Source: a virus
Lineage: Duplodnaviria > Heunggongvirae > Uroviricota > Caudoviricetes
DNA length: 6,888 nucleotides
Virus record (IMG/VR): IMGVR_UViG_2802429219_000013
Direction: 5' to 3' (one strand)
The notes beneath the pieces are model-generated. The model was not told the origin of the DNA. It saw nothing but the letters and a program-made list of their open reading frames with translations, and ran no database searches. The position numbers were made by a program, and so were the translations under genes. Below are positions 220 to 6,888 of this stretch, piece by piece (position 1 is the stretch's first letter; each line of letters starts with the position of its first letter).

Positions 220-342
220 TTAAATGATGCGCTTACCTTTATGCGCCGATGTGGTTTTATCCTGCTGCTGTATCGCCTGCGTCGTTTTCTGCAGCGTGCC
301 GTAAATGCCTTTCGGTTTTCGGTTAATGGTCAGCTTTGTCAT
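220..342 (-). CDS. Hypothetical small basic protein (40 aa)
   Basis: ATG at 342 (minus strand) preceded by AGGGGAAAG with ~4 nt spacing; ORF MTKLTINRKPKGIYGTLQKTTQAIQQQDKTTSAHKGKRII ends with TAA at 220-222. Lies 36 nt downstream of the ssb stop, same strand. Below the ORF-track length cutoff; no recognisable family. Confidence 0.3.
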   Translation of the reverse strand: MTKLTINRKPKGIYGTLQKTTQAIQQQDKTTSAHKGKRII

Positions 343-378: not shown

Positions 379-801
379 TTAAAACGGTATGTTGTCCCCG
401 TACGGATCATCATTACCCGCCTGTTGTTTTGCCCTGTTCAGCGCGTCAGTAGCCTGGCCCTGTTGACCTTTTTTGCCGCCCGGTCGCGCCGTTCGCGCAC
501 TGATTACGCTGTCTGCGATGACCTGCCAGCCCTGCCGCGTTTCGCCGTTCTGGCCTGTCCACTGGCTTACCTGCATGTTACCCGCCACGCTCACCAGTTC
601 GCCTTTCTGGTGCTTTGCCAGTGCGTCGGCCTGTCTGCCAAACGCCAGGACGGATAACCACATCGTCGCCGTTCCGTCATCTGCCTGGCTGCACGGCAGG
701 GGAACCGCCATACTCGCCATCGCCATTTGTGTCCCCTTGCTGGTGGTCTTTAACTGCGGGTCAGCCACCAGCCGCCCGTAAGCCGCTATCTGTGCTGTCA
801 T
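379..801 (-). CDS. ssb: Single-stranded DNA-binding protein (SSB, OB-fold) with C-terminal ...GDNIPF tip
   Basis: 140-aa ORF. ATG at 801 preceded by GGAGAG about 9 nt upstream. The N-terminal two thirds follow the SSB OB-fold pattern (YGRLVADPQLKTT..., LSVLAFGRQADALAKHQKGELVSVAGNMQVSQWTGQNGETRQGWQVIADSV), followed by a Gly/Gln-rich linker and an acidic C-terminus ending IPF, as in E. coli SSB (DDDIPF). Confidence 0.85.
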   Translation of the reverse strand: MTAQIAAYGRLVADPQLKTTSKGTQMAMASMAVPLPCSQADDGTATMWLSVLAFGRQADALAKHQKGELVSVAGNMQVSQWTGQNGETRQGWQVIADSVISARTARPGGKKGQQGQATDALNRAKQQAGNDDPYGDNIPF

Positions 802-864
802 GCTGTCTGCTCTCCGGTTTTAACGTTGATAGTTACGCTTGTTTACACCCTTACTGTGAAATTC

Positions 865-939
865 TGCGGGTTATAATCGCACTTTTGCGGGTTATAACTG
901 CCGTTTTGCGGGTTATTTTGGGTATTTTGCGGGTTACGA
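865..939 (+). repeat. Four direct iterons (TGCGGGTTAyna) at exact 21-bp spacing
   Basis: TGCGGGTTATAA at 865-876 and 886-897, TGCGGGTTATTT at 907-918, TGCGGGTTACGA at 928-939; each preceded by a short T run. The 21-bp period is two helical turns, so all copies lie on the same face of the DNA. Confidence 0.75.
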
Positions 940-978
940 TTTTCCTGTCATTCCTTTAATAATCATATGGATACTGAT

Positions 979-987
979 TTATCCACA
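979..987 (+). promoter_or_regulatory. Consensus DnaA box (TTATCCACA)
   Basis: Exact 9/9 match to the E. coli DnaA box consensus, located inside the AT-rich spacer between the direct and inverted iterons. Confidence 0.5.
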
Positions 988-990
988 GAA

Positions 991-1009
991 ATAACCCGCA
1001 TAACCCGCA
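991..1009 (-). repeat. Two inverted copies of the iteron core (ATAACCCGCA = reverse complement of TGCGGGTTAT)
   Basis: ATAACCCGCA at 991-1000 and again at 1000-1009 (9-bp offset, sharing one base), opposite in orientation to the four direct iterons. Confidence 0.7.
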
Positions 1010-1037
1010 AAATTTTCACCCTACACGCGAGAAAAAA

Positions 1038-3161
1038 TTAATCTTCTTCGCTTTCAGGCTGGAACATCAGCACGTAAAAAACATGCTGCTTCCCCCCAAT
1101 CCTGCCGAGCGCCTTTTTCTTGTAACGGCGATCGTTACCCGCTTCCAGCATTCCGGCAGCACTCAACGCGCGGGCAAAGTGAGACGGATTAAATCCCTGT
1201 GCTATCTCACCCTCAAATACATGCGGGAACGTGTAAAAACGGAACTCGTCATCTTCGTTTCTGATACTCCCCTTTCTGTATCCGGCAAGCTCTTTAATCG
1301 GTAAATCACGCTCGTCGGTGTTGGGCCACGGAAGGTATCTGCTGAATCCAAACGACGCTAAAAAAGCCTCTGCCTGTTCAACCATCTGTTTAAACTCCCT
1401 GTTACCCGTGCCGAATTCCTTCACCCAGGCATTAAAATTATGCTGAATGGCATCGCGGCACGCCTGAACATCCCAACCAGTAATATGGACGGAAAGCACC
1501 AGCGCCGACTCCAGCATGGCGAATCGTTCCCCCACACGGTGAACCTGTTCGCCGTAGCTCTCCGGTATCAGGTTGCGCCACCGTTCACGGCATGCCCTTA
1601 CCGTGTCCTTTGCCTCCTGCTGGTGGTCTGCCAGCCATTTAACCCACTCACGCCCAGCCGCCCCGTGATTTTCTGTCCAGGCATCTTTTAACGCGTCTGC
1701 GTGCGCCTTTCCGGTGCTGTATTCGTGAAATTGCGTGGCTTTTTCCATCGGAACGTTAAGCAGGCGGACAAGCTGCCCCGCTTTGACTTTTATCCCCTCC
1801 GTTTTGAGGAATGTTTCAACGTCCATTTCTCCGGTACTGATTGCCACCGTTCGCCAGTGTTTGATCTCCCGGTTGCCGCCGTCCTTCGCTCCCTGTAATT
1901 TCCCGGAACCGTTAAACAGCGTATAAGCCGATGTGGACACCTCCCGCGCGTTTCCGGCCTGACCTATTTCATCCAGGGGTAATAGCCCGTCATTGTGCGC
2001 CTCTGCCTCGTTGGCGATACCTAACGCCGTGCCGTACCAGGTCAGCCGTTGTGCGTCCGGCTCTCCCCATAAACTGGATGCGATGTTCTGCGTTGTGGTC
2101 TTACCTGCCGATGACTGTTCGAAAAGATGTACCCCGAAGCCGTCAGCACCCACCAGCCCGATTAATGGTGCGGATAACGATACCGCCACACCCAGCATCA
2201 TGGACGGATTACCACCAGCCAGTCGCGCCACGGTATCGCGCCAGCCATCCGCCGTTCCTGCCACGGAATAGCCATTAACGGCAGCCGTTTTTCCGGTAAA
2301 CAGGATCGGTTTTTCAGACTCACCAATGACTGAACCGTCCGGCATGATGTACGCACCAAAATGCCAGCCCGTTGTTGTGCTTAACTGCCATTCCTCATGG
2401 TTTCCGCTTAACTGCATCCAGTCAGCCAGGATAGCCCTGTATTTGCCGTTGGTTGTCACATTCAGTCCGTGGTCTTTCAGCAGCCGCCAGCCGTCACGGT
2501 CGCCAATGCCACCGCACGGAACCGCCATTGTGATGACTTCGTGGTTTGCAGGTTTCTTCCAGCGCATCACGCGGTAATGCTCTTTGCCGATTGTCCCCGT
2601 TCCCAGTAGTTCAAGCGGGGAGCATAACCACGTCTCAGGCCGGATAATTTCGCCTGACTGCTTGTCAACTTTGGGCGTTACCCAGAAAACACCATCGGCG
2701 CGACTTTCAACGCGGGGCTTTAATTCATCATCGCCCTGGCTTTCTGTGATTTTTTTCTTTAAGGGCAACACCAGACTTTCCCCGCGCTCGTATTCGTCTT
2801 TCAGTCGGGCAAGCTGTGGTGTCCAGTCCTCCAGTAAATCGCCGTTCTCGTCACAAAAACAGGCTTCCTTAACACCAGCCGCTGCCAGCAGGGTTTCAAT
2901 CTGTAGCGCCAGTTTGTCATCCAGTTTTCCGGCACGTCTGACGATGGCGCGTGACCGACCATCATCCACAATACGCAGGTTTTCCAGATTACCCAGGTCA
3001 CGCCGTCCGAGATAAACAGGTGGTATTTTGTCGCCGCGCTTTCTGGCTTCTCCGCCCTGCATGTAATGCTCTGCGTGGCTGTATGCGTCATCCCCCGCAA
3101 AAATCACTGCATCCTCGCCTTTATCTTTCGGTAACAGTTTTACGTTCGGTGCCAGTTTCAT
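1038..3161 (-). CDS. Primase/helicase-like replication initiation protein (P4 alpha-like / DUF927-type, assignment from memory) with P-loop-like SAGKTT motif
   Basis: 707-aa ORF, by far the longest in the window. Start ATG at 3161 overlaps the upstream ORF's stop (ATGA) and is preceded by GGGGAAAGG. Contains a P-loop-like motif FEQSSAGKTTTQ near aa 350. Position between the regulatory module and an iteron origin matches replication proteins of int-alpA-pri type satellites. Family call not verified by search. Confidence 0.9.
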   Translation of the reverse strand: MKLAPNVKLLPKDKGEDAVIFAGDDAYSHAEHYMQGGEARKRGDKIPPVYLGRRDLGNLENLRIVDDGRSRAIVRRAGKLDDKLALQIETLLAAAGVKEACFCDENGDLLEDWTPQLARLKDEYERGESLVLPLKKKITESQGDDELKPRVESRADGVFWVTPKVDKQSGEIIRPETWLCSPLELLGTGTIGKEHYRVMRWKKPANHEVITMAVPCGGIGDRDGWRLLKDHGLNVTTNGKYRAILADWMQLSGNHEEWQLSTTTGWHFGAYIMPDGSVIGESEKPILFTGKTAAVNGYSVAGTADGWRDTVARLAGGNPSMMLGVAVSLSAPLIGLVGADGFGVHLFEQSSAGKTTTQNIASSLWGEPDAQRLTWYGTALGIANEAEAHNDGLLPLDEIGQAGNAREVSTSAYTLFNGSGKLQGAKDGGNREIKHWRTVAISTGEMDVETFLKTEGIKVKAGQLVRLLNVPMEKATQFHEYSTGKAHADALKDAWTENHGAAGREWVKWLADHQQEAKDTVRACRERWRNLIPESYGEQVHRVGERFAMLESALVLSVHITGWDVQACRDAIQHNFNAWVKEFGTGNREFKQMVEQAEAFLASFGFSRYLPWPNTDERDLPIKELAGYRKGSIRNEDDEFRFYTFPHVFEGEIAQGFNPSHFARALSAAGMLEAGNDRRYKKKALGRIGGKQHVFYVLMFQPESEED

Positions 3162-3472
3162 TTTGCCTTTCCCCGTTCACGAATAATTTCACGTACTGCC
3201 TTAATGCGTTCCATACCTGTAACGCGCATGATTCTGTCGATGTCGCTTAAGTCCGCTGGTGGTGCTTTGCTTACCAGGGTGAATTCCCTTTCAAAGCGCA
3301 TAAGTGACGACACGCAGGGATGCGCATAACCTTCGCGGATATAGGTCACGCGAAAATCATCGACGGTTTTAATCGTTATCGTGCTGCCGTATTTATCCCG
3401 GAAAATATCGCCGGGGCGGATTTCAGGCCGAGCGGGGCCGCTGGCAGTAAAGCCAGAAATTTTCTGTTTCAT
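3158..3472 (-). CDS. Hypothetical protein (104 aa), translationally coupled to the primase gene
   Basis: ORF MKQKISGF...RERGKAK; its TGA stop overlaps the primase ATG (ATGA, 3158-3161). Starts 5 nt after the stop of the upstream ORF. No family recognised. Confidence 0.7.
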   Translation of the reverse strand: MKQKISGFTASGPARPEIRPGDIFRDKYGSTITIKTVDDFRVTYIREGYAHPCVSSLMRFEREFTLVSKAPPADLSDIDRIMRVTGMERIKAVREIIRERGKAK

Positions 3473-3477
3473 GGTTT

Positions 3478-3705
3478 TTATTCCGCGTTTATTTTTTTAT
3501 CGTGAATTTCGATCGCTTTATTTAATTCGACGATTACCGTATCGAGTAATGAAATAAACGCACCAGCAAGGTTAGATTCACGTTCATCTTCCGGCGCATC
3601 ACTTAAACCATCAAGCCAGATAAGCAATATTTGCCGCAAACATTCACTGTTAGTCAGTGCATGTTCTGCATGGCTCATTGATTTAAAATAACGGTCATCA
3701 TGCAT
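3478..3705 (-). CDS. Hypothetical small protein (75 aa)
   Basis: The track ORF 3478-3750 was trimmed to the internal ATG at 3705, which is preceded by TCAGGGGG with 6 nt spacing and overlaps the upstream ORF's stop by 8 nt (ATGCATGA). Protein MHDDRYFKSMSHAEHALTNSECLRQILLIWLDGL... Confidence 0.55.
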   Translation of the reverse strand: MHDDRYFKSMSHAEHALTNSECLRQILLIWLDGLSDAPEDERESNLAGAFISLLDTVIVELNKAIEIHDKKINAE

Positions 3706-3934
3706 GGTGCGCCCCCTGAATATCTGCGGTAAGAATTTTGCCTGCCTCATTCAGTGCCATATCAGCGGTAAGCTGTGCGTATGCCAGTGAATGCGGGATT
3801 ATCGCCCCTGTATATTCCGGCTCTCTGGTAATGTGTTTTTCTGCGGTTGCTGCTGTGCATGAAATATCAATCAGCGCGTGCATTAGCGTTTTGATGGCTT
3901 CGGCGGCTGCGTCCGGACGGGTGTTATTGCACAT
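3698..3934 (-). CDS. Hypothetical small protein (78 aa)
   Basis: ATG at 3934 preceded by TATTCAGGGGG with 6 nt spacing; 11-nt overlap with the upstream ORF. C-terminus ...ADIQGAHHA is encoded by the reiterated junction element. Confidence 0.55.
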   Translation of the reverse strand: MCNNTRPDAAAEAIKTLMHALIDISCTAATAEKHITREPEYTGAIIPHSLAYAQLTADMALNEAGKILTADIQGAHHA

Positions 3935-4136
3935 GTCTCACCCCCTGAATATTCGCGTTAATCATTCCGGCACGCTCTGCGAGTTCCTGTAATGATTCCC
4001 TTGTTGCGACAATTGCTTCATCTGGCAGGTGGTAATTACACACCACGCGACCTTTATCCACATTGACCAGTAGCTGCCCGGTGAATTTCTCACGAAACTG
4101 AACGCGGTTAAGGTCGGTAAGTGACAGGTTAATCAT
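3924..4136 (-). CDS. Hypothetical small protein (70 aa)
   Basis: ATG at 4136 preceded by TCAGGGGG with 6 nt spacing; C-terminus ...ANIQGVRHVQ is encoded by the junction element. No family recognised. Confidence 0.55.
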   Translation of the reverse strand: MINLSLTDLNRVQFREKFTGQLLVNVDKGRVVCNYHLPDEAIVATRESLQELAERAGMINANIQGVRHVQ

Positions 4137-4332
4137 GGTGTACCCCCTGACGAATACGGGCGGCGAATACCATCACGCAGCCATCAGGAGATTGCTGGCG
4201 TGCTTCCTGTTCGCTGGTGGCCTCGATGTGAATCACGCGCGGTTGTGCGGTGCCCAGGGCGATAAAACGCCAGATGTATTTATTCAGGTTGTGCGAGTCC
4301 CGCCCTTGCGGGTGTGTGGTATGATTTAACAT
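4129..4332 (-). CDS. Hypothetical small protein (67 aa), first gene of the leftward operon
   Basis: Retained 3' part of the implausible 306-aa track ORF 4129-5049. The internal ATG at 4332 is preceded by GAGGT with ~4 nt spacing. C-terminus ...ARIRQGVHHD again comes from the junction element. The antisense + ORF 4135-4329 lacks an RBS. Confidence 0.45.
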   Translation of the reverse strand: MLNHTTHPQGRDSHNLNKYIWRFIALGTAQPRVIHIEATSEQEARQQSPDGCVMVFAARIRQGVHHD

Positions 4333-4428
4333 AGCTACCTCGATACTCTCGTTATCGTTGGTGGTTAGAAGCCCGTTGGTGTTGGTAGCGCCTGCGGGCT
4401 TTGTCTTTTCATCGATTACCTTAATAAA

Positions 4429-4510
4429 GGTGTCAGCCACTATACTAGTAATAGGTGTCAGCCACGTCAATAGTGTTTTTCCATTTTCTTGTGTGTATAC
4501 TGTCAGCCAC
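4429..4510. promoter_or_regulatory. Divergent promoter/operator region with three direct repeats of (G)GTGTCAGCCAC
   Basis: GGTGTCAGCCAC at 4429-4440 and 4454-4465, ACTGTCAGCCAC at 4499-4510. Two TATACT -10-like hexamers (4441-4446, 4496-4501) abut the repeats. A candidate leftward promoter on the minus strand has -35 TTGACG (rc of 4465-4470) and -10 TAGTAT (rc of 4442-4447) with a 17-nt spacer. The candidate rightward -10 at 4496-4501 overlaps repeat 3 and lies about 30 nt upstream of the RHH gene ATG. Confidence 0.5.
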
Positions 4511-4531
4511 CTAATAACAAGGGAATCAGAT

Positions 4532-4711
4532 ATGGCAACGAAAGCAGTTAATGGAAAATCAAAAAAACTTGAGGCACGAGTACCCCATGCAATAGCTGAC
4601 GCTGTAGAAAATTTAAAGGAAGAAGGCGAAAGCACTGGGCAATTTATCGTTTCGGCACTTGAAGGTGAGATCAAACGCCGCCAGCGGCGCAAGGCCAAAG
4701 AGCAGGAATAG
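4532..4711 (+). CDS. Small DNA-binding regulator, ribbon-helix-helix-like (59 aa); candidate repressor of the element
   Basis: ATG at 4532 preceded by AAGGGA about 8 nt upstream. MATKAVNGKSKKLEARVPHAIADAVENLKEEGESTGQFIVSALEGEIKRRQRRKAKEQE has a basic N-terminus, a short beta-strand-like KKLEARVP segment followed by two predicted helices, and a basic tail, consistent with an RHH (Arc/CopG/MetJ-like) fold. The track ORF 4358-4711 was trimmed because its 5' extension runs through the operators and promoters. Confidence 0.6.
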   Translation: MATKAVNGKSKKLEARVPHAIADAVENLKEEGESTGQFIVSALEGEIKRRQRRKAKEQE

Positions 4712-4808
4712 CCAACCAGCAAGCCAGCACACTGATCACATTGCCCACCAGCCGCAAATGTGGCATTGTTGGCGATGCGTTCAAGTTTGATTTGCCGTAA
4801 TACCCACT

Positions 4809-4840
4809 GGCGACCCTTTGCGGTCGCCTTTGTTTTGCTT
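4809..4840 (+). terminator. Rho-independent terminator (likely end of the RHH regulator transcript)
   Basis: Perfect 7-bp stem GGCGACC (4809-4815) / GGTCGCC (4822-4828) with a 6-nt loop, followed by TTTGTTTTGCTT. Confidence 0.55.
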
Positions 4841-4874
4841 GTTATCCGGCAATTGTGGCGCTTCGTCACACGGT

Positions 4875-4883
4875 TGATATAAT
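4875..4883 (+). promoter_or_regulatory. Candidate extended -10 promoter (TGaTATAAT)
   Basis: TG at 4875-4876, one base, then consensus TATAAT at 4878-4883. No good -35, which extended -10 promoters tolerate. Located between two + strand terminators. Confidence 0.35.
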
Positions 4884-4889
4884 TTCCCT

Positions 4890-4960
4890 GCACTGATCCA
4901 TTTTTTTCGCAGCAGGTTAATTGTTCAGAAAGGCGGCTCATTATCGGGGCCGCTTTTTTT
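4890..4960 (+). ncRNA. Candidate small RNA (~70 nt) between the extended -10 promoter and a strong intrinsic terminator
   Basis: Predicted start ~4890 (7 nt after the -10), end at the terminator 4933-4960. No ATG inside the predicted transcript (4890-4960). Purely a prediction from promoter plus terminator geometry. Confidence 0.3.
4933..4960 (+). terminator. Rho-independent terminator
   Basis: Stem GCGGCTC (4933-4939) / GGGCCGC (4947-4953), 7 bp including one G-U pair, with a 7-nt loop, followed by TTTTTTT (4954-4960). Confidence 0.65.
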
Positions 4961-5101
4961 ATGCCTGAAAAACACCAATTTTGTGGTTTTTCAGTTTCAC
5001 CAGGCCGAACGAAGCCCCGCCCCTGTACGGGCGCATATCCAGTATTCATGGTTAGATCTCTGTATTAGTGGATGGGTGGCGGCTGTGTGCCGCCAGCCTG
5101 A

Positions 5102-5290
5102 TTAGTGAACTGCCTCGCAGCTGTCTTTCCATGCCAGAACTTCGGATAAAGACCAGCCAACGGAACGACCGCCGAGCTTACGCCGTGATGGGAATTGTCC
5201 GGCTTTTTCCAGGCGGTACCGACATGAGCGGCTCAGGCCTGTAAGTTGCTGACATTCTTTTTCACGTATAAAGCGATCTGTGCTTAACAC
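5102..5290 (-). CDS. alpA: AlpA-family transcriptional regulator / excisionase-like DNA-binding protein
   Basis: 62-aa ORF; the segment QQLTGLSRSCRYRLEKAGQFPSRRKLGGRSVGWSLSEVLAWK fits the AlpA/phage winged-helix pattern (LTGLSRSTIYRL..G.FP.P.KLG.R.V.W...E...W). Start is GTG at 5290 preceded by AAGGGGGAA with ~4 nt spacing. Same orientation as and downstream of int, as in CP4-57-type elements. Confidence 0.85.
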   Translation of the reverse strand: MLSTDRFIREKECQQLTGLSRSCRYRLEKAGQFPSRRKLGGRSVGWSLSEVLAWKDSCEAVH

Positions 5291-5658
5291 AATTCCCCCT
5301 TTGTTGTTTCTTAAAGAGTCATTGGGTGGATTATTGGGTTGGGTTGTGTCGGATTGTGTCAGGGTGTTTATGGAATGGCAAACACTGGTGGCGGTTGTTT
5401 TACAGAAATGGGGGTAATGAGAATAAAAACTCTTTTAATTCATTGTGGTGCAAAGGCATAAAATTCTGTTTTTACGCATTTTTTACATGTTTTTAAGAGT
5501 GATTCGCCAATGTACAAAAAACCAGTAAAACGACTGAAAATCAACTTTTTAGGGTGTCAGTCAGATGATAATCAAGTTTGTTCCAGATTGTTCGCTGTTG
5601 TTCGTCGTGGTGTCTCGTTGTTTCACGTTGTTTCCGTTCTAAAAAATCGCGAAAAAAA

Positions 5659-6888
5659 TTATATTTCTCTGGCTATTGGCAGTGTGGTTACGTTTTCGTG
5701 AGCACCTGCCAGTATCTCTAATCGCTCTGTCCATATGTCCAACGCACTACGTTTCGCATCGAGATAACGGGAGTGGTTATAGACTCGTTGCATCCCTGGC
5801 ATCTGGTGAGCGGTGAGTTGTTCGACAATATGCGGATCCACGCCTAAATCGTTCAGCATCGTGGTAAACGTGCGCCGTATATCGTGTAGTGACCAGTGCG
5901 GATGGTTTAATTTTTTGTGTGTGAATCTGCCGTATTGCGACACGCTGGCTTCCTGTTTCAGCTCCCCGAGTAATAGCCCTGTGTGTCGGTTCTGCTCCAC
6001 CAGCTGCGTGACGAACGGTAAAATGCTTTCCGGTATTGGCCTGAATATGGCGACCTTCGTTTTGCTGTGTTCTTTCGGTACCGTCCAGAGCATTTCCTTA
6101 AAATCCCACTCCTTGATCTCCGACAGCCTCAGCTCTCCGGTTCGGCAGCCGAACACAATCAGGAGGCGGATTAGTGCGCTGTAGTAGGGTGGGAATATTT
6201 TTTTATCCAGCGCCTGTAATAATTCGCCCAGTTCTTTGTTACTAAGCACGCGTTCGCTTATGCCGGGCTTTTTGCCAACGTCCACTACGTTGAGATCATC
6301 CAGAACGTTACTGACTGCGTAGCGACGTTTACGGCAGAACTTAAGCGCCTGTTTACACGCCTGCATCATGTGACCAGACGTTACAGGGGATTTTTTGCGT
6401 ATCCGGTCAAAACAGGCCAGCCAGTGACGTAACTCGCATTTATCCAGTGGCATGTTACCGATGTGCTGTATGACGTGATTATTAAGGCGGCTTTTCAGGG
6501 AGATGTAATCGACGCGGTTTTCCTTTACGTGCATTTCCAGCCAGTAGCTGATCGCATCGCCCACCGTTACCGGCTTTAGTGCTTCCTGTATGGAGTAATT
6601 AAGCTCATGGCGTGGATTTTTTCCCTCTGCCAGCCATGCGCGACACTGTGCTGCTTTTTCCCTAGCTGCTTTCAGGCTCAGATCTGGATAATTTCCCAGT
6701 TTCAGGCGTTCCGGTGATACCTGGCGTCCTGTTCCTGCCCTGTAGGTGAAATACCAGGTTAATAGGCCGCTGGTGGAGTGTCTGATACTCAGATTTCCAC
6801 CGTCATTAAGAAAGGTGGTTTTTTGGGCTGGTGTGCCGTTGATTTTTCTTAGCTGCGTGTCGCTCAGTTTGTTAAGTGCCCTGCTCAT
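5659..6888 (-). CDS. int: Tyrosine site-specific integrase (P4-type)
   Basis: 409-aa ORF with the tyrosine recombinase catalytic signature in the C-terminal half: R in VFGCRTGELRLSE, HxxR in LHDIRRTF, and the downstream tyrosine region QRVYNHSRYLDAKRS. ATG is at the last bases of the window (6886-6888), so upstream sequence and the att/tRNA side are not visible. Confidence 0.95.
   Translation of the reverse strand: MSRALNKLSDTQLRKINGTPAQKTTFLNDGGNLSIRHSTSGLLTWYFTYRAGTGRQVSPERLKLGNYPDLSLKAAREKAAQCRAWLAEGKNPRHELNYSIQEALKPVTVGDAISYWLEMHVKENRVDYISLKSRLNNHVIQHIGNMPLDKCELRHWLACFDRIRKKSPVTSGHMMQACKQALKFCRKRRYAVSNVLDDLNVVDVGKKPGISERVLSNKELGELLQALDKKIFPPYYSALIRLLIVFGCRTGELRLSEIKEWDFKEMLWTVPKEHSKTKVAIFRPIPESILPFVTQLVEQNRHTGLLLGELKQEASVSQYGRFTHKKLNHPHWSLHDIRRTFTTMLNDLGVDPHIVEQLTAHQMPGMQRVYNHSRYLDAKRSALDIWTERLEILAGAHENVTTLPIAREI

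Follow-up and report, generated by a model that had tools for sequence, protein, structure and literature searches.

Why should a stretch of 6,888 bases of viral DNA (IMG/VR record IMGVR_UViG_2802429219_000013; this whole stretch is called the window below) be studded with Chi, the octamer whose recognition by enteric RecBCD is established? An exact search for GCTGGTGG returned 10 copies, five per strand, those on the minus strand being located as CCACCAGC on the plus strand, and Chi was the commonest octamer of the window. Judged by its gene content, the window is the left half (integration, regulation, and replication; int-alpA-icd-primase-ori-ssb) of a phage-inducible chromosomal island (PICI) of Escherichia coli that was disrupted by an insertion sequence (IS). 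The answer that we consider probable, though far from certain, is that the PICI family to which it belongs, satellites of lambdoid or HK97-type helper phages, is under direct selection for Chi, which would enable rescue of its linear DNA by RecBCD and RecA. The 10 sites are distributed as follows:

739-746, plus strand: Chi antisense to ssb, codons 19-21 (TTS)
765-772, minus strand: Chi on the coding strand of ssb (R-L-V-A), CTG-GTG frame
1619-1626, plus strand: Chi antisense in the DUF927 primase gene (D-H-Q-Q)
2150-2157, minus strand: Chi on the coding strand of the DUF927 gene (G-L-V-G)
2212-2219, minus strand: Chi on the coding strand of the DUF927 gene (A-G-G), frame GCT-GGT-GG
3255-3262, plus strand: Chi antisense in the DUF4222 gene (P-P-A)
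4213-4220, plus strand: Chi antisense in the Icd-like gene (A-T-S)
4745-4752, minus strand: Chi in the stretch without annotation that separates the YlcI/YnfO gene from alpA
5997-6004, minus strand: Chi on the coding strand of the integrase gene (Q-L-V-E)
6769-6776, plus strand: Chi antisense in the integrase gene (S-T-S)

Nine of the 10 copies are borne by open reading frames (ORFs). A first-pass annotation of the window had already noted a strong excess of Chi in both orientations, which is borne out and was even slightly understated: the nine copies that it counted are all real, but the one at 5997-6004 had been overlooked, and although seven of its coordinates are exact, the two sites placed at 766 and 4746 begin one base further left (765 and 4745). 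The longer contexts that it described around two pairs of sites (TGCTGGTGGTCT at 738-749 and 1618-1629; CCACCAGCCGC at 765-775 and 4745-4755) are indeed present, but they are short (11-12 nt), and there is no sign of a longer repeat.

Dinucleotide shuffles of the window (n = 200) contained 0.23 Chi on average and three at most. At the average density of the E. coli chromosome (217 Chi/Mb), ∼1.5 copies would be expected, which makes the window ∼7 times denser than the chromosome (Poisson P(≥10) = 4e-6); both expectations agree with the earlier estimates of about 0.2 and 1.5. The first-pass annotation had named beforehand the outcome that would reduce the excess to a matter of codon usage, namely, similar counts after codon-preserving shuffling. 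Such counts were not obtained. In 5,000 synonymous-codon shuffles, carried out within genes or pooled, with the proteins and the codon usage of each gene kept and non-coding DNA untouched, the mean was 1.7 Chi (including one fixed intergenic site) and the maximum was 6; none of the 5,000 reached 10. When the annotated genes of two whole related islands, L001 and EcCICFT073, were treated likewise, the observed counts were never reached in 3,000 trials (P < 1/3000). As synonymous shuffling yields six copies at most, the Chi excess is not a by-product of codon usage.

The excess extends through the island family. The gene for the DUF927 replicase encoded in the window is chromosomal in 370 of 5,426 complete E. 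coli genomes, and in 13 genomes at least 80% of the window is covered, with 92-97% identity. Full-length relatives are islands of 10.7-15.4 kb without tail or lysis genes, and seven of them from E. coli contain Chi as follows:

L001, PICI: 22 Chi in 14.1 kb, 1.57/kb
L002, PICI: 26 Chi in 14.7 kb, 1.77/kb
L024, PICI: 16 Chi in 13.9 kb, 1.15/kb
L023, capsid-forming PICI of O157:H7: 13 Chi in 15.4 kb, 0.84/kb
L026, helper-embedded capsid-forming PICI of E. coli 042: 14 Chi in 15.2 kb, 0.92/kb
L028, EcCICFT073: 11 Chi in 11.4 kb, 0.96/kb
L029, RepA-type PICI: 9 Chi in 10.7 kb, 0.84/kb

Pooled, the seven islands contain 111 Chi in 95.4 kb (1.16/kb), as against 26 Chi in 103 kb of flanking core genes (0.25/kb); the flanks of L001 and L002 have 0.30 and 0.23 Chi/kb, respectively, and the excess ends at the island borders. 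Chi is the first-ranked octamer in all seven (tied with an iteron octamer in L023), most of the other frequent octamers being iterons, which also come next after Chi in the window, and its observed/expected ratio (O/E) under a trinucleotide model ranges from 12 to 25. The two orientations are balanced (48:63), and the sites are spread over the whole island. The trait is also encountered in other genera with the enteric Chi: among 20 putative islands from 20 other Enterobacterales species, collected as relatives of the replicase gene (L003-L022), Chi ranks first to third among octamers in 14; the borders of these islands are approximate and the background densities of their hosts are not known, which renders them supportive rather than decisive.

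Other mobile elements of E. coli are different. There was not a single Chi in the satellite P4 (L025, 11.6 kb) and two integrated P4-like elements (L030 and L031), ∼32 kb in total, nor in 46.6 kb of a lambda-like prophage of strain CFT073, which is located at icd, neighbors EcCICFT073, and encodes Gam, Bet, and Exo (L027 2371-49001), nor in the visible 17.9 kb of another lambdoid of CFT073. The prophage at icd is, going by chromosomal order, probably the "prophage 4" that was demonstrated to be the helper of EcCICFT073. The lambdoid prophage surrounding the island of E. coli 042 has 0.41 Chi/kb. In view of these contrasts with flanks and prophages, the Chi load of the satellites does not simply mirror that of their surroundings or that of a helper.

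The placement of the sites relative to genes indicates that selection acts on the motif as DNA and not on what it encodes. Outside the annotated coding sequences of L001, L002, and EcCICFT073, Chi density is 1.77/kb, and inside them it is 1.32/kb; of 35 genic sites, 18 have GCTGGTGG on the coding strand and nine have it in the CTG-GTG frame. For the nine genic sites of the window, the corresponding numbers are four (with five antisense) and three. In E. coli, 79% of such sites are on the coding strand and 68% in that frame, and in phage P1 the values are 63 and 41% (Subramaniam & Smith, bioRxiv 10.1101/2021.07.08.451572). It was from these features that the authors argued P1 to be under direct selection for Chi, and the islands display them too: Chi is the top octamer, its density is similar in coding and non-coding DNA, and its link to coding strand and frame is weak.

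Individual sites are kept as well. All 10 of the window are common to at least two relatives, and four (765, 4213, 4745, and 5997) are shared with EcCICFT073. Site 765 is conserved in eight of eight alignable relatives and site 739 in L001, L002, L026, L029, and L003; site 4213 is present in L001, L002, L026, EcCICFT073 (L028), and L029, site 4745 in the same five and in L003 from E. albertii, and site 5997 in L001, L002, L023, and EcCICFT073. Site 3255 is common to L001 and L002 only, and site 6769 is found in these two and, with one mismatch, in EcCICFT073. When 11 DUF927 orthologues were aligned by codon, each gene proved to contain one to three Chi (two or three in 10 of the 11), even where nucleotide identity falls to 60%; these Chi constitute a mix of conserved and lineage-specific sites. 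Site 1619 is kept in eight of the 11, again down to 60% identity; there, the preceding codon varies (D, G, P, or S), yet the C that the motif requires in its third position is retained. Sites 739 and 765 form a back-to-back pair of opposite orientations, 26 bp apart, at the 5′ end of ssb, and a pair of this type is conserved in L001 (12503-12536), L026 (19728-19761), and L029 (18163-18196).

What, then, is the element that bears these sites? The genes and other features of the window are the following:

1-236: IS66-family fragment interrupting the island; matches IS66-family elements, homology to relatives beginning at 237
238-342, minus strand: ProQ/FinO-family gene, truncated to its first 35 codons; identical to the N-terminus of a 174-aa protein of L001
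379-801, minus strand: gene for an island-encoded single-stranded DNA-binding protein (SSB; Pfam SSB, 4e-16), C-terminal tip ...DNIPF
862-1013: iteron cluster, putative replication origin; four direct repeats of TTTTGCGGGTTA at 21-bp spacing, with inverted copies as well
1038-3161, minus strand: DUF927 primase/replicase gene (pri-rep), 707 aa (Pfam DUF927, 1e-46; PHROG DNA primase, 1e-176)
3158-3472, minus strand: DUF4222 gene (Pfam, 5e-20)
4129-4605, minus strand: Icd-like/repressor-like gene (PHROG 6196, 2e-53; annotated as Icd-like in relatives), start uncertain
4532-4711, plus strand: small YlcI/YnfO-family gene (PHROG 949 and annotation of relatives), partly antisense to the Icd-like frame
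5102-5290, minus strand: gene for an AlpA-family activator, regulator of PICI induction (Pfam Phage_AlpA, 3e-18)
5659-6888, minus strand: tyrosine integrase gene, 409 aa (Pfam Arm-DNA-bind_3 and Phage_integrase), at the attachment site (att)-proximal end; product 100% identical to the L001 integrase

All real genes are on the minus strand except one small ORF, and three further small ORFs of unknown function are on the minus strand too. The AlpA protein is 100% identical to that of L001 (WP_000953274.1), and the AlpA of EcCICFT073 has the same accession; it is this identity with a reference PICI that marks the window as the left half of one. As is typical of PICIs, a tyrosine integrase at one end has an AlpA activator as its neighbor, and the element has its own primase/replicase with iterons next to it. 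The iteron cluster, its inverted copies at 989-1013, lies between ssb and the primase gene and is presumably the island origin. The tip of the SSB is of the usual acidic ...IPF type. From the 92-97% identity to E. coli chromosomes, we infer that the host was E. coli or a close relative. Domains of Gam, Abc2, or a recombinase were not found in the window proteins (Pfam and PHROG), nor are such proteins annotated in the related whole islands; small ORFs of unknown function could still hide one. A search of the window against Rfam at gathering thresholds gave no known RNA family under the Chi sites.

Some details of the gene map deserve mention. A frame of 306 codons (4129-5049) reaches far upstream of the Icd-like gene of ∼158 codons, overlaps the oppositely oriented YlcI/YnfO gene, and contains the intergenic Chi at 4745; it is probably not coding over its full length. 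At 3478-3934, two overlapping ORFs of 90 and 78 aa (PHROGs 2196 and 5146/2512) stand where L002 has a single gene of 465 nt, which may reflect a frameshift or a module difference. L001 and L002 have a hypothetical gene of ∼350 bp that separates ssb from the DUF927 gene; it is missing from the window (802-1037 compared with L001 12562-13164).

The relatives are integrated at yifB, in the abgR/smrA region, at roxA/phoQ, at tRNA-Gly and tRNA-Pro genes, and inside a prophage terL; EcCICFT073 is located between roxA and phoQ in CFT073. Their back ends are of three types: Nu1-like or DUF1441 small-terminase-like genes together with cargo such as a K88-type fimbrial subunit (in L001 at 8070-8855; Pfam Fimbrial_K88, 3e-52), capsid-like and decoration-like genes, or a complete HK97-type capsid/terminase module. 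By gene content, these islands correspond to classical PICIs and capsid-forming PICIs. The one that interrupts terL of a lambdoid prophage in E. coli 042 (L026 11413-26642) is a helper-embedded satellite of the capsid-forming kind, and the closest replicase relative (97%) belongs to it. A lambda cosN is absent from the lineage of the window and, among the islands examined, is present only in EcCICFT073; the Nu1-type and DUF1441 genes of the relatives hint that packaging in the lineage may be of the cos type. Simple headful packaging was considered as well and could not be supported, as the small-terminase-like genes of the relatives are of the Nu1 type or DUF1441.

Two further observations concern octamers and Chi in related islands. 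With 17 and 13 copies, octamers of the CCAGCCAG/GCCAGCCA type are very frequent in the L001 island, suggesting that it contains a CCAG-based simple repeat. Near the far end of related islands and outside the window is a hairpin (L002 6379-6441, equivalent to L001 5111-5173 and L029 13533-13595) of −35.7 kcal/mol (z = −3.2), whose outer stem is made up of a Chi and an anti-Chi at a distance of 55 bp; it is followed by a run of T and has no match in Rfam. A cut between the two Chi of this hairpin would leave both new ends beginning with a correctly oriented Chi.

Direct selection for Chi is indicated by the excess, by its family-wide extent, and by its independence of codon usage; what the sites would be selected for is suggested by how such islands are replicated and packaged. 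Linear concatemers and multimeric packaged DNA would offer double-strand ends to RecBCD, both in the donor and in the recipient; possible points of entry are a rolling circle's tail, a cut by terminase or by a restriction enzyme, and either end of injected DNA. Because Chi is present on both strands, RecBCD entering from any end should meet a correctly oriented Chi within ∼1-2 kb. It would nick there and load RecA, possibly aided by the SSB of the island, and the 3′ end could then recombine with another island copy, be it within its own multimer or on a sister circle, a homologous partner thus being available in cis. The outcome would be an end-less circle or concatemer instead of degraded DNA. 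RecBCD recognizes Chi in ∼30% of encounters. When this value was assumed in a simulation on the seven islands, 76-99% of entries led to recognition before one unit length had been exceeded, whereas at host density the simulated mean run before recognition was ∼31 kb, which is more than two unit lengths. Because the run has to end within a unit length, an element of 10-15 kb would need a far higher Chi density than a phage of 45-95 kb. Packaging of P4 by P2 makes use of monomeric circles, and the contrast in Chi content between PICIs, P4-type satellites, and the Gam-encoding prophage follows lifestyle; the complete lack of Chi in the Gam-encoding prophage of CFT073 is as expected for phages that encode an inhibitor. 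Both the dependence on RecBCD and RecA and the step of the life cycle concerned are things that we only infer.

Several points weigh against this interpretation. Chi alone, it has been argued, does not turn RecBCD from a destroyer into a repairer, survival of Chi-bearing linear DNA requiring RecA, SSB, and a homologous partner as well (Subramaniam & Smith, bioRxiv 10.1101/2021.07.08.451572). EcCICFT073 is transferred at similar frequency into the recA strain DH5alpha and into rec+ recipients (Fillol-Salom et al. 2018, PMC6092414), and thus, in the conditions used there, this cos-type PICI can be established without RecA-dependent recombination. A helper that produces Gam would neutralize RecBCD in the donor, where Chi would then no longer matter. 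The seven E. coli islands are related by descent and are not independent samples. In some relatives from other genera, the orientation of Chi is strongly one-sided (10:0 in L019, 10:2 in L013, and 7:1 in both L016 and L006), nearly all Chi of these putative islands being on the coding strand of the replicase; the ratio for the relatives from other genera taken together is 106:50. No single simple model accounts for this as well as for the balance in E. coli. Finally, the particular island copy represented by the window is without its packaging and cargo half, or separated from it, because of the IS, and may hence be immobile.

The first-pass annotation had proposed that dense, bidirectional Chi protects linear forms of the element by attenuating degradation by RecBCD. 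The core of this proposal has gained from the failure of codon shuffles to reproduce the excess, from the density of the islands relative to their flanks, and from the hallmarks of selection on the motif, but attenuated degradation by itself would probably not suffice. Given the requirement for RecA, SSB, and a homologue, recombinational rescue or circularization of multimers describes the role of Chi better. A more specific scenario, to which we give little credence, is that an incoming, Chi-studded PICI multimer, together with its own SSB, causes massive loading of RecA, which would both yield a circularized or monomerized satellite and trigger SOS induction of a resident helper prophage; the satellite would then outlast the helper when Gam is limiting, Chi-free helpers, of which the Gam-encoding prophage of CFT073 is an example, staying dependent on Gam.

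Among the alternatives, the one that survives best, although we regard it as rather unlikely, is that Chi promotes modular exchange between islands and that Chi-rich modules spread by hitch-hiking or lineage-level selection, no protective or circularizing role being involved. The family is indeed strongly mosaic: one and the same int-alpA-rep-ssb module is combined with back ends of the classical, the Nu1, and the capsid-forming type, it occurs at many att sites, and identity between the window and its relatives varies in blocks along the window. However, phages that use the host RecABCD functions are less mosaic than those with recombinases of their own (Bobay, Touchon & Rocha 2013, PMC3784561), and the absence of Chi from the equally mosaic P4-like elements would be left unexplained.

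Less probable still is that Chi mainly serves to evade defenses fed by RecBCD, i.e., the acquisition of CRISPR spacers and the loading of Argonaute guides, by making the satellite resemble "self." That degradation products of RecBCD feed CRISPR-Cas and Argonaute has been noted in a review, and a balanced occurrence on both strands would suit protection from breaks anywhere; yet P4-type satellites, which face the same defenses in the same hosts, have no Chi, which favors an explanation by lifestyle and packaging. Moreover, the CRISPR adaptation machinery is inactive or absent in many E. coli strains. Both this and modular exchange are compatible with selection for recombinational rescue.

We see very little in favor of a benefit gained while the island is integrated, be it repair of replication forks crossing it or amelioration to the sequence habits of the host. 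The islands are 4-8 times denser in Chi than flanking core DNA, well beyond what amelioration would give, and the family resides at many loci, even inside a prophage terL. Chromosomal Chi is polarized with replication, as the flanks of L029 illustrate (5:1 and 3:1), whereas the E. coli islands are balanced. That prophage Chi might stabilize an element in the chromosome was, nevertheless, suggested by Bobay et al. (PMC3784561).

An equally slim chance is left to the idea that the octamer does not act as Chi at all but is bound by a protein of the island or makes up the core of some dispersed repeat. The shared contexts of two site pairs and the stable hairpin stem formed by a Chi/anti-Chi pair in relatives would fit such a role, but the flanks of the 10 copies are otherwise unrelated, and their genes, frames, and strands differ; variants with one mismatch are not enriched (at most three copies), and in each of the islands, as in relatives from other enteric genera with different iterons, the word that is enriched matches the host Chi exactly. 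A longer repeat or protein-binding motif was therefore rejected on account of the unrelated flanks and the lack of enriched one-mismatch variants.

The notion that Chi is a by-product of codon usage (favored codons CTG, GTG, and GGT), amino-acid composition, or base composition, in line with the argument that codon usage explains the Chi frequency of the E. coli chromosome (Subramaniam & Smith, bioRxiv 10.1101/2021.07.08.451572) and with the location of nine of the 10 window sites in ORFs, deserves next to no belief, such an artefact being ruled out by the dinucleotide, synonymous (1.7 vs 10 copies), and whole-island shuffles and by a non-coding density of related islands (1.77/kb) at least as high as the coding one, and being at odds also with the few sites of the window in the CTG-GTG frame (three of nine), the many antisense ones (five of nine), and the mere 0.25 Chi/kb of adjacent core genes.

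A full-text search of the literature returned no paper linking Chi with PICIs or other satellites; one on P4 cosmids in which "chi" is frequent proved to deal with chimeric tails. Selection for RecBCD/RecA-dependent rescue would extend a known principle, a selected excess of Chi in elements that rely on the host RecBCD and RecA, to a new class, the PICI satellites. PICIs are major carriers of virulence and defense genes in enterobacteria, and if their Chi load is functional, a host pathway on which their spread depends has been identified. If true, it would also explain the sharp split between the two great satellite families of E. coli, with ∼1 Chi/kb in PICIs and none in P4. As a natural case of Chi being selected directly, the islands would be the strongest to date and would bear on the debate of selection versus codon usage. 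In practical terms, Chi content is a possible, cheap marker for PICI-type satellites and worth minding when PICI-based delivery vehicles are engineered.

How do the islands compare with known systems? The closest one is EcCICFT073, which shares with the window the gene order (int, alpA, icd-like, DUF4222, primase, ssb, and perC), an identical AlpA, and a related integrase, and which is Chi-dense itself. It differs by a shorter replicase of the "DNA primase family," by lambda-type cosN sites, and by a back end with Rpp and capsid-like genes, whereas the closest relatives of the window have a DUF927 replicase, Nu1-like or DUF1441 genes, and no lambda cosN. EcCICFT073 was described as replicating into concatemers, and its packaged DNA is phage-sized, each capsid thus holding several copies in tandem (Fillol-Salom et al. 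2018, PMC6092414; 2019, PMC6739421); it is the only one of these islands for which induction and transfer by a helper phage were demonstrated experimentally. Neither of the two papers mentions RecBCD or Gam; in PMC6739421, 11 words begin with "chi," some of them forms such as "chimeric."

P4 and the P4-like elements resemble the PICIs as small integrative satellites of E. coli with AlpA-like and Icd-like regulators and a primase-helicase, but differ by having no Chi as opposed to ∼1/kb. Lambdoid phages with neither recombinase nor RecBCD inhibitor (Rec−/Inh−) are more similar in this respect: they over-represent Chi with a median O/E of 3.1, at about host density (0.2/kb), the E. coli median O/E being 2.3; Rec− lambdoids have a local Chi hotspot between ori and cos of up to 3 times host density; phages that encode Gam or Abc2 avoid Chi; and phages packaged from concatemers over-represent it compared with those packaged from monomers, most strongly P1 and T5 (Bobay et al., PMC3784561). 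The islands are alike in that Chi is over-represented, with O/E well above 1, and that no recombinase or RecBCD inhibitor of their own was recognized; they differ in that their O/E reaches 12-25 over the whole length, in contrast to the host-level density of these lambdoids. EcCICFT073, with its ori presumed to lie just downstream of the primase gene, was inspected for the lambdoid pattern of Chi crowding from ori to cos, which is not evident (four sites in the ∼3.3 kb from one to the other vs seven in the remaining ∼8.1 kb). Satellites were outside the survey of Bobay et al. (PMC3784561).

A functional parallel is provided by plasmids that replicate by rolling circle or are linearized. According to a summary of the work concerned (Dabert 1992; Kuzminov 1994), DNA that was linear or of high molecular weight survived better in recBCD+ cells when it had properly oriented Chi; two Chi were better than one, and RecA and SSB were needed. 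The SSB requirement matches the islands, which combine many Chi with an ssb of their own. Unlike the plasmids, which were engineered and had one or two Chi, the islands are natural and have 10-26 sites.

The best precedent for selected Chi is phage P1, with 50 copies in 94.8 kb, where Chi is the top octamer and present on both strands; these copies were proposed to be selected for circularization of terminally redundant injected DNA via RecBCD, Chi, and RecA (Subramaniam & Smith, bioRxiv 10.1101/2021.07.08.451572). P1 (and likewise P7 and D6) and the islands have in common linear packaged DNA that is multi-copy or terminally redundant and the lack of a recognizable RecBCD inhibitor. P1 is an autonomous phage that needs RecA and RecBCD for growth and has its Chi clustered toward the packaging ends, whereas the islands are satellites, one of which, EcCICFT073, is transferred into a recA strain, and their Chi are spread over the whole element of 10-15 kb. 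At 0.84-1.77 Chi/kb, the islands are 2-3 times denser than P1 (0.53/kb), and their densities exceed every whole-element value quoted by Bobay et al. and by Subramaniam & Smith.

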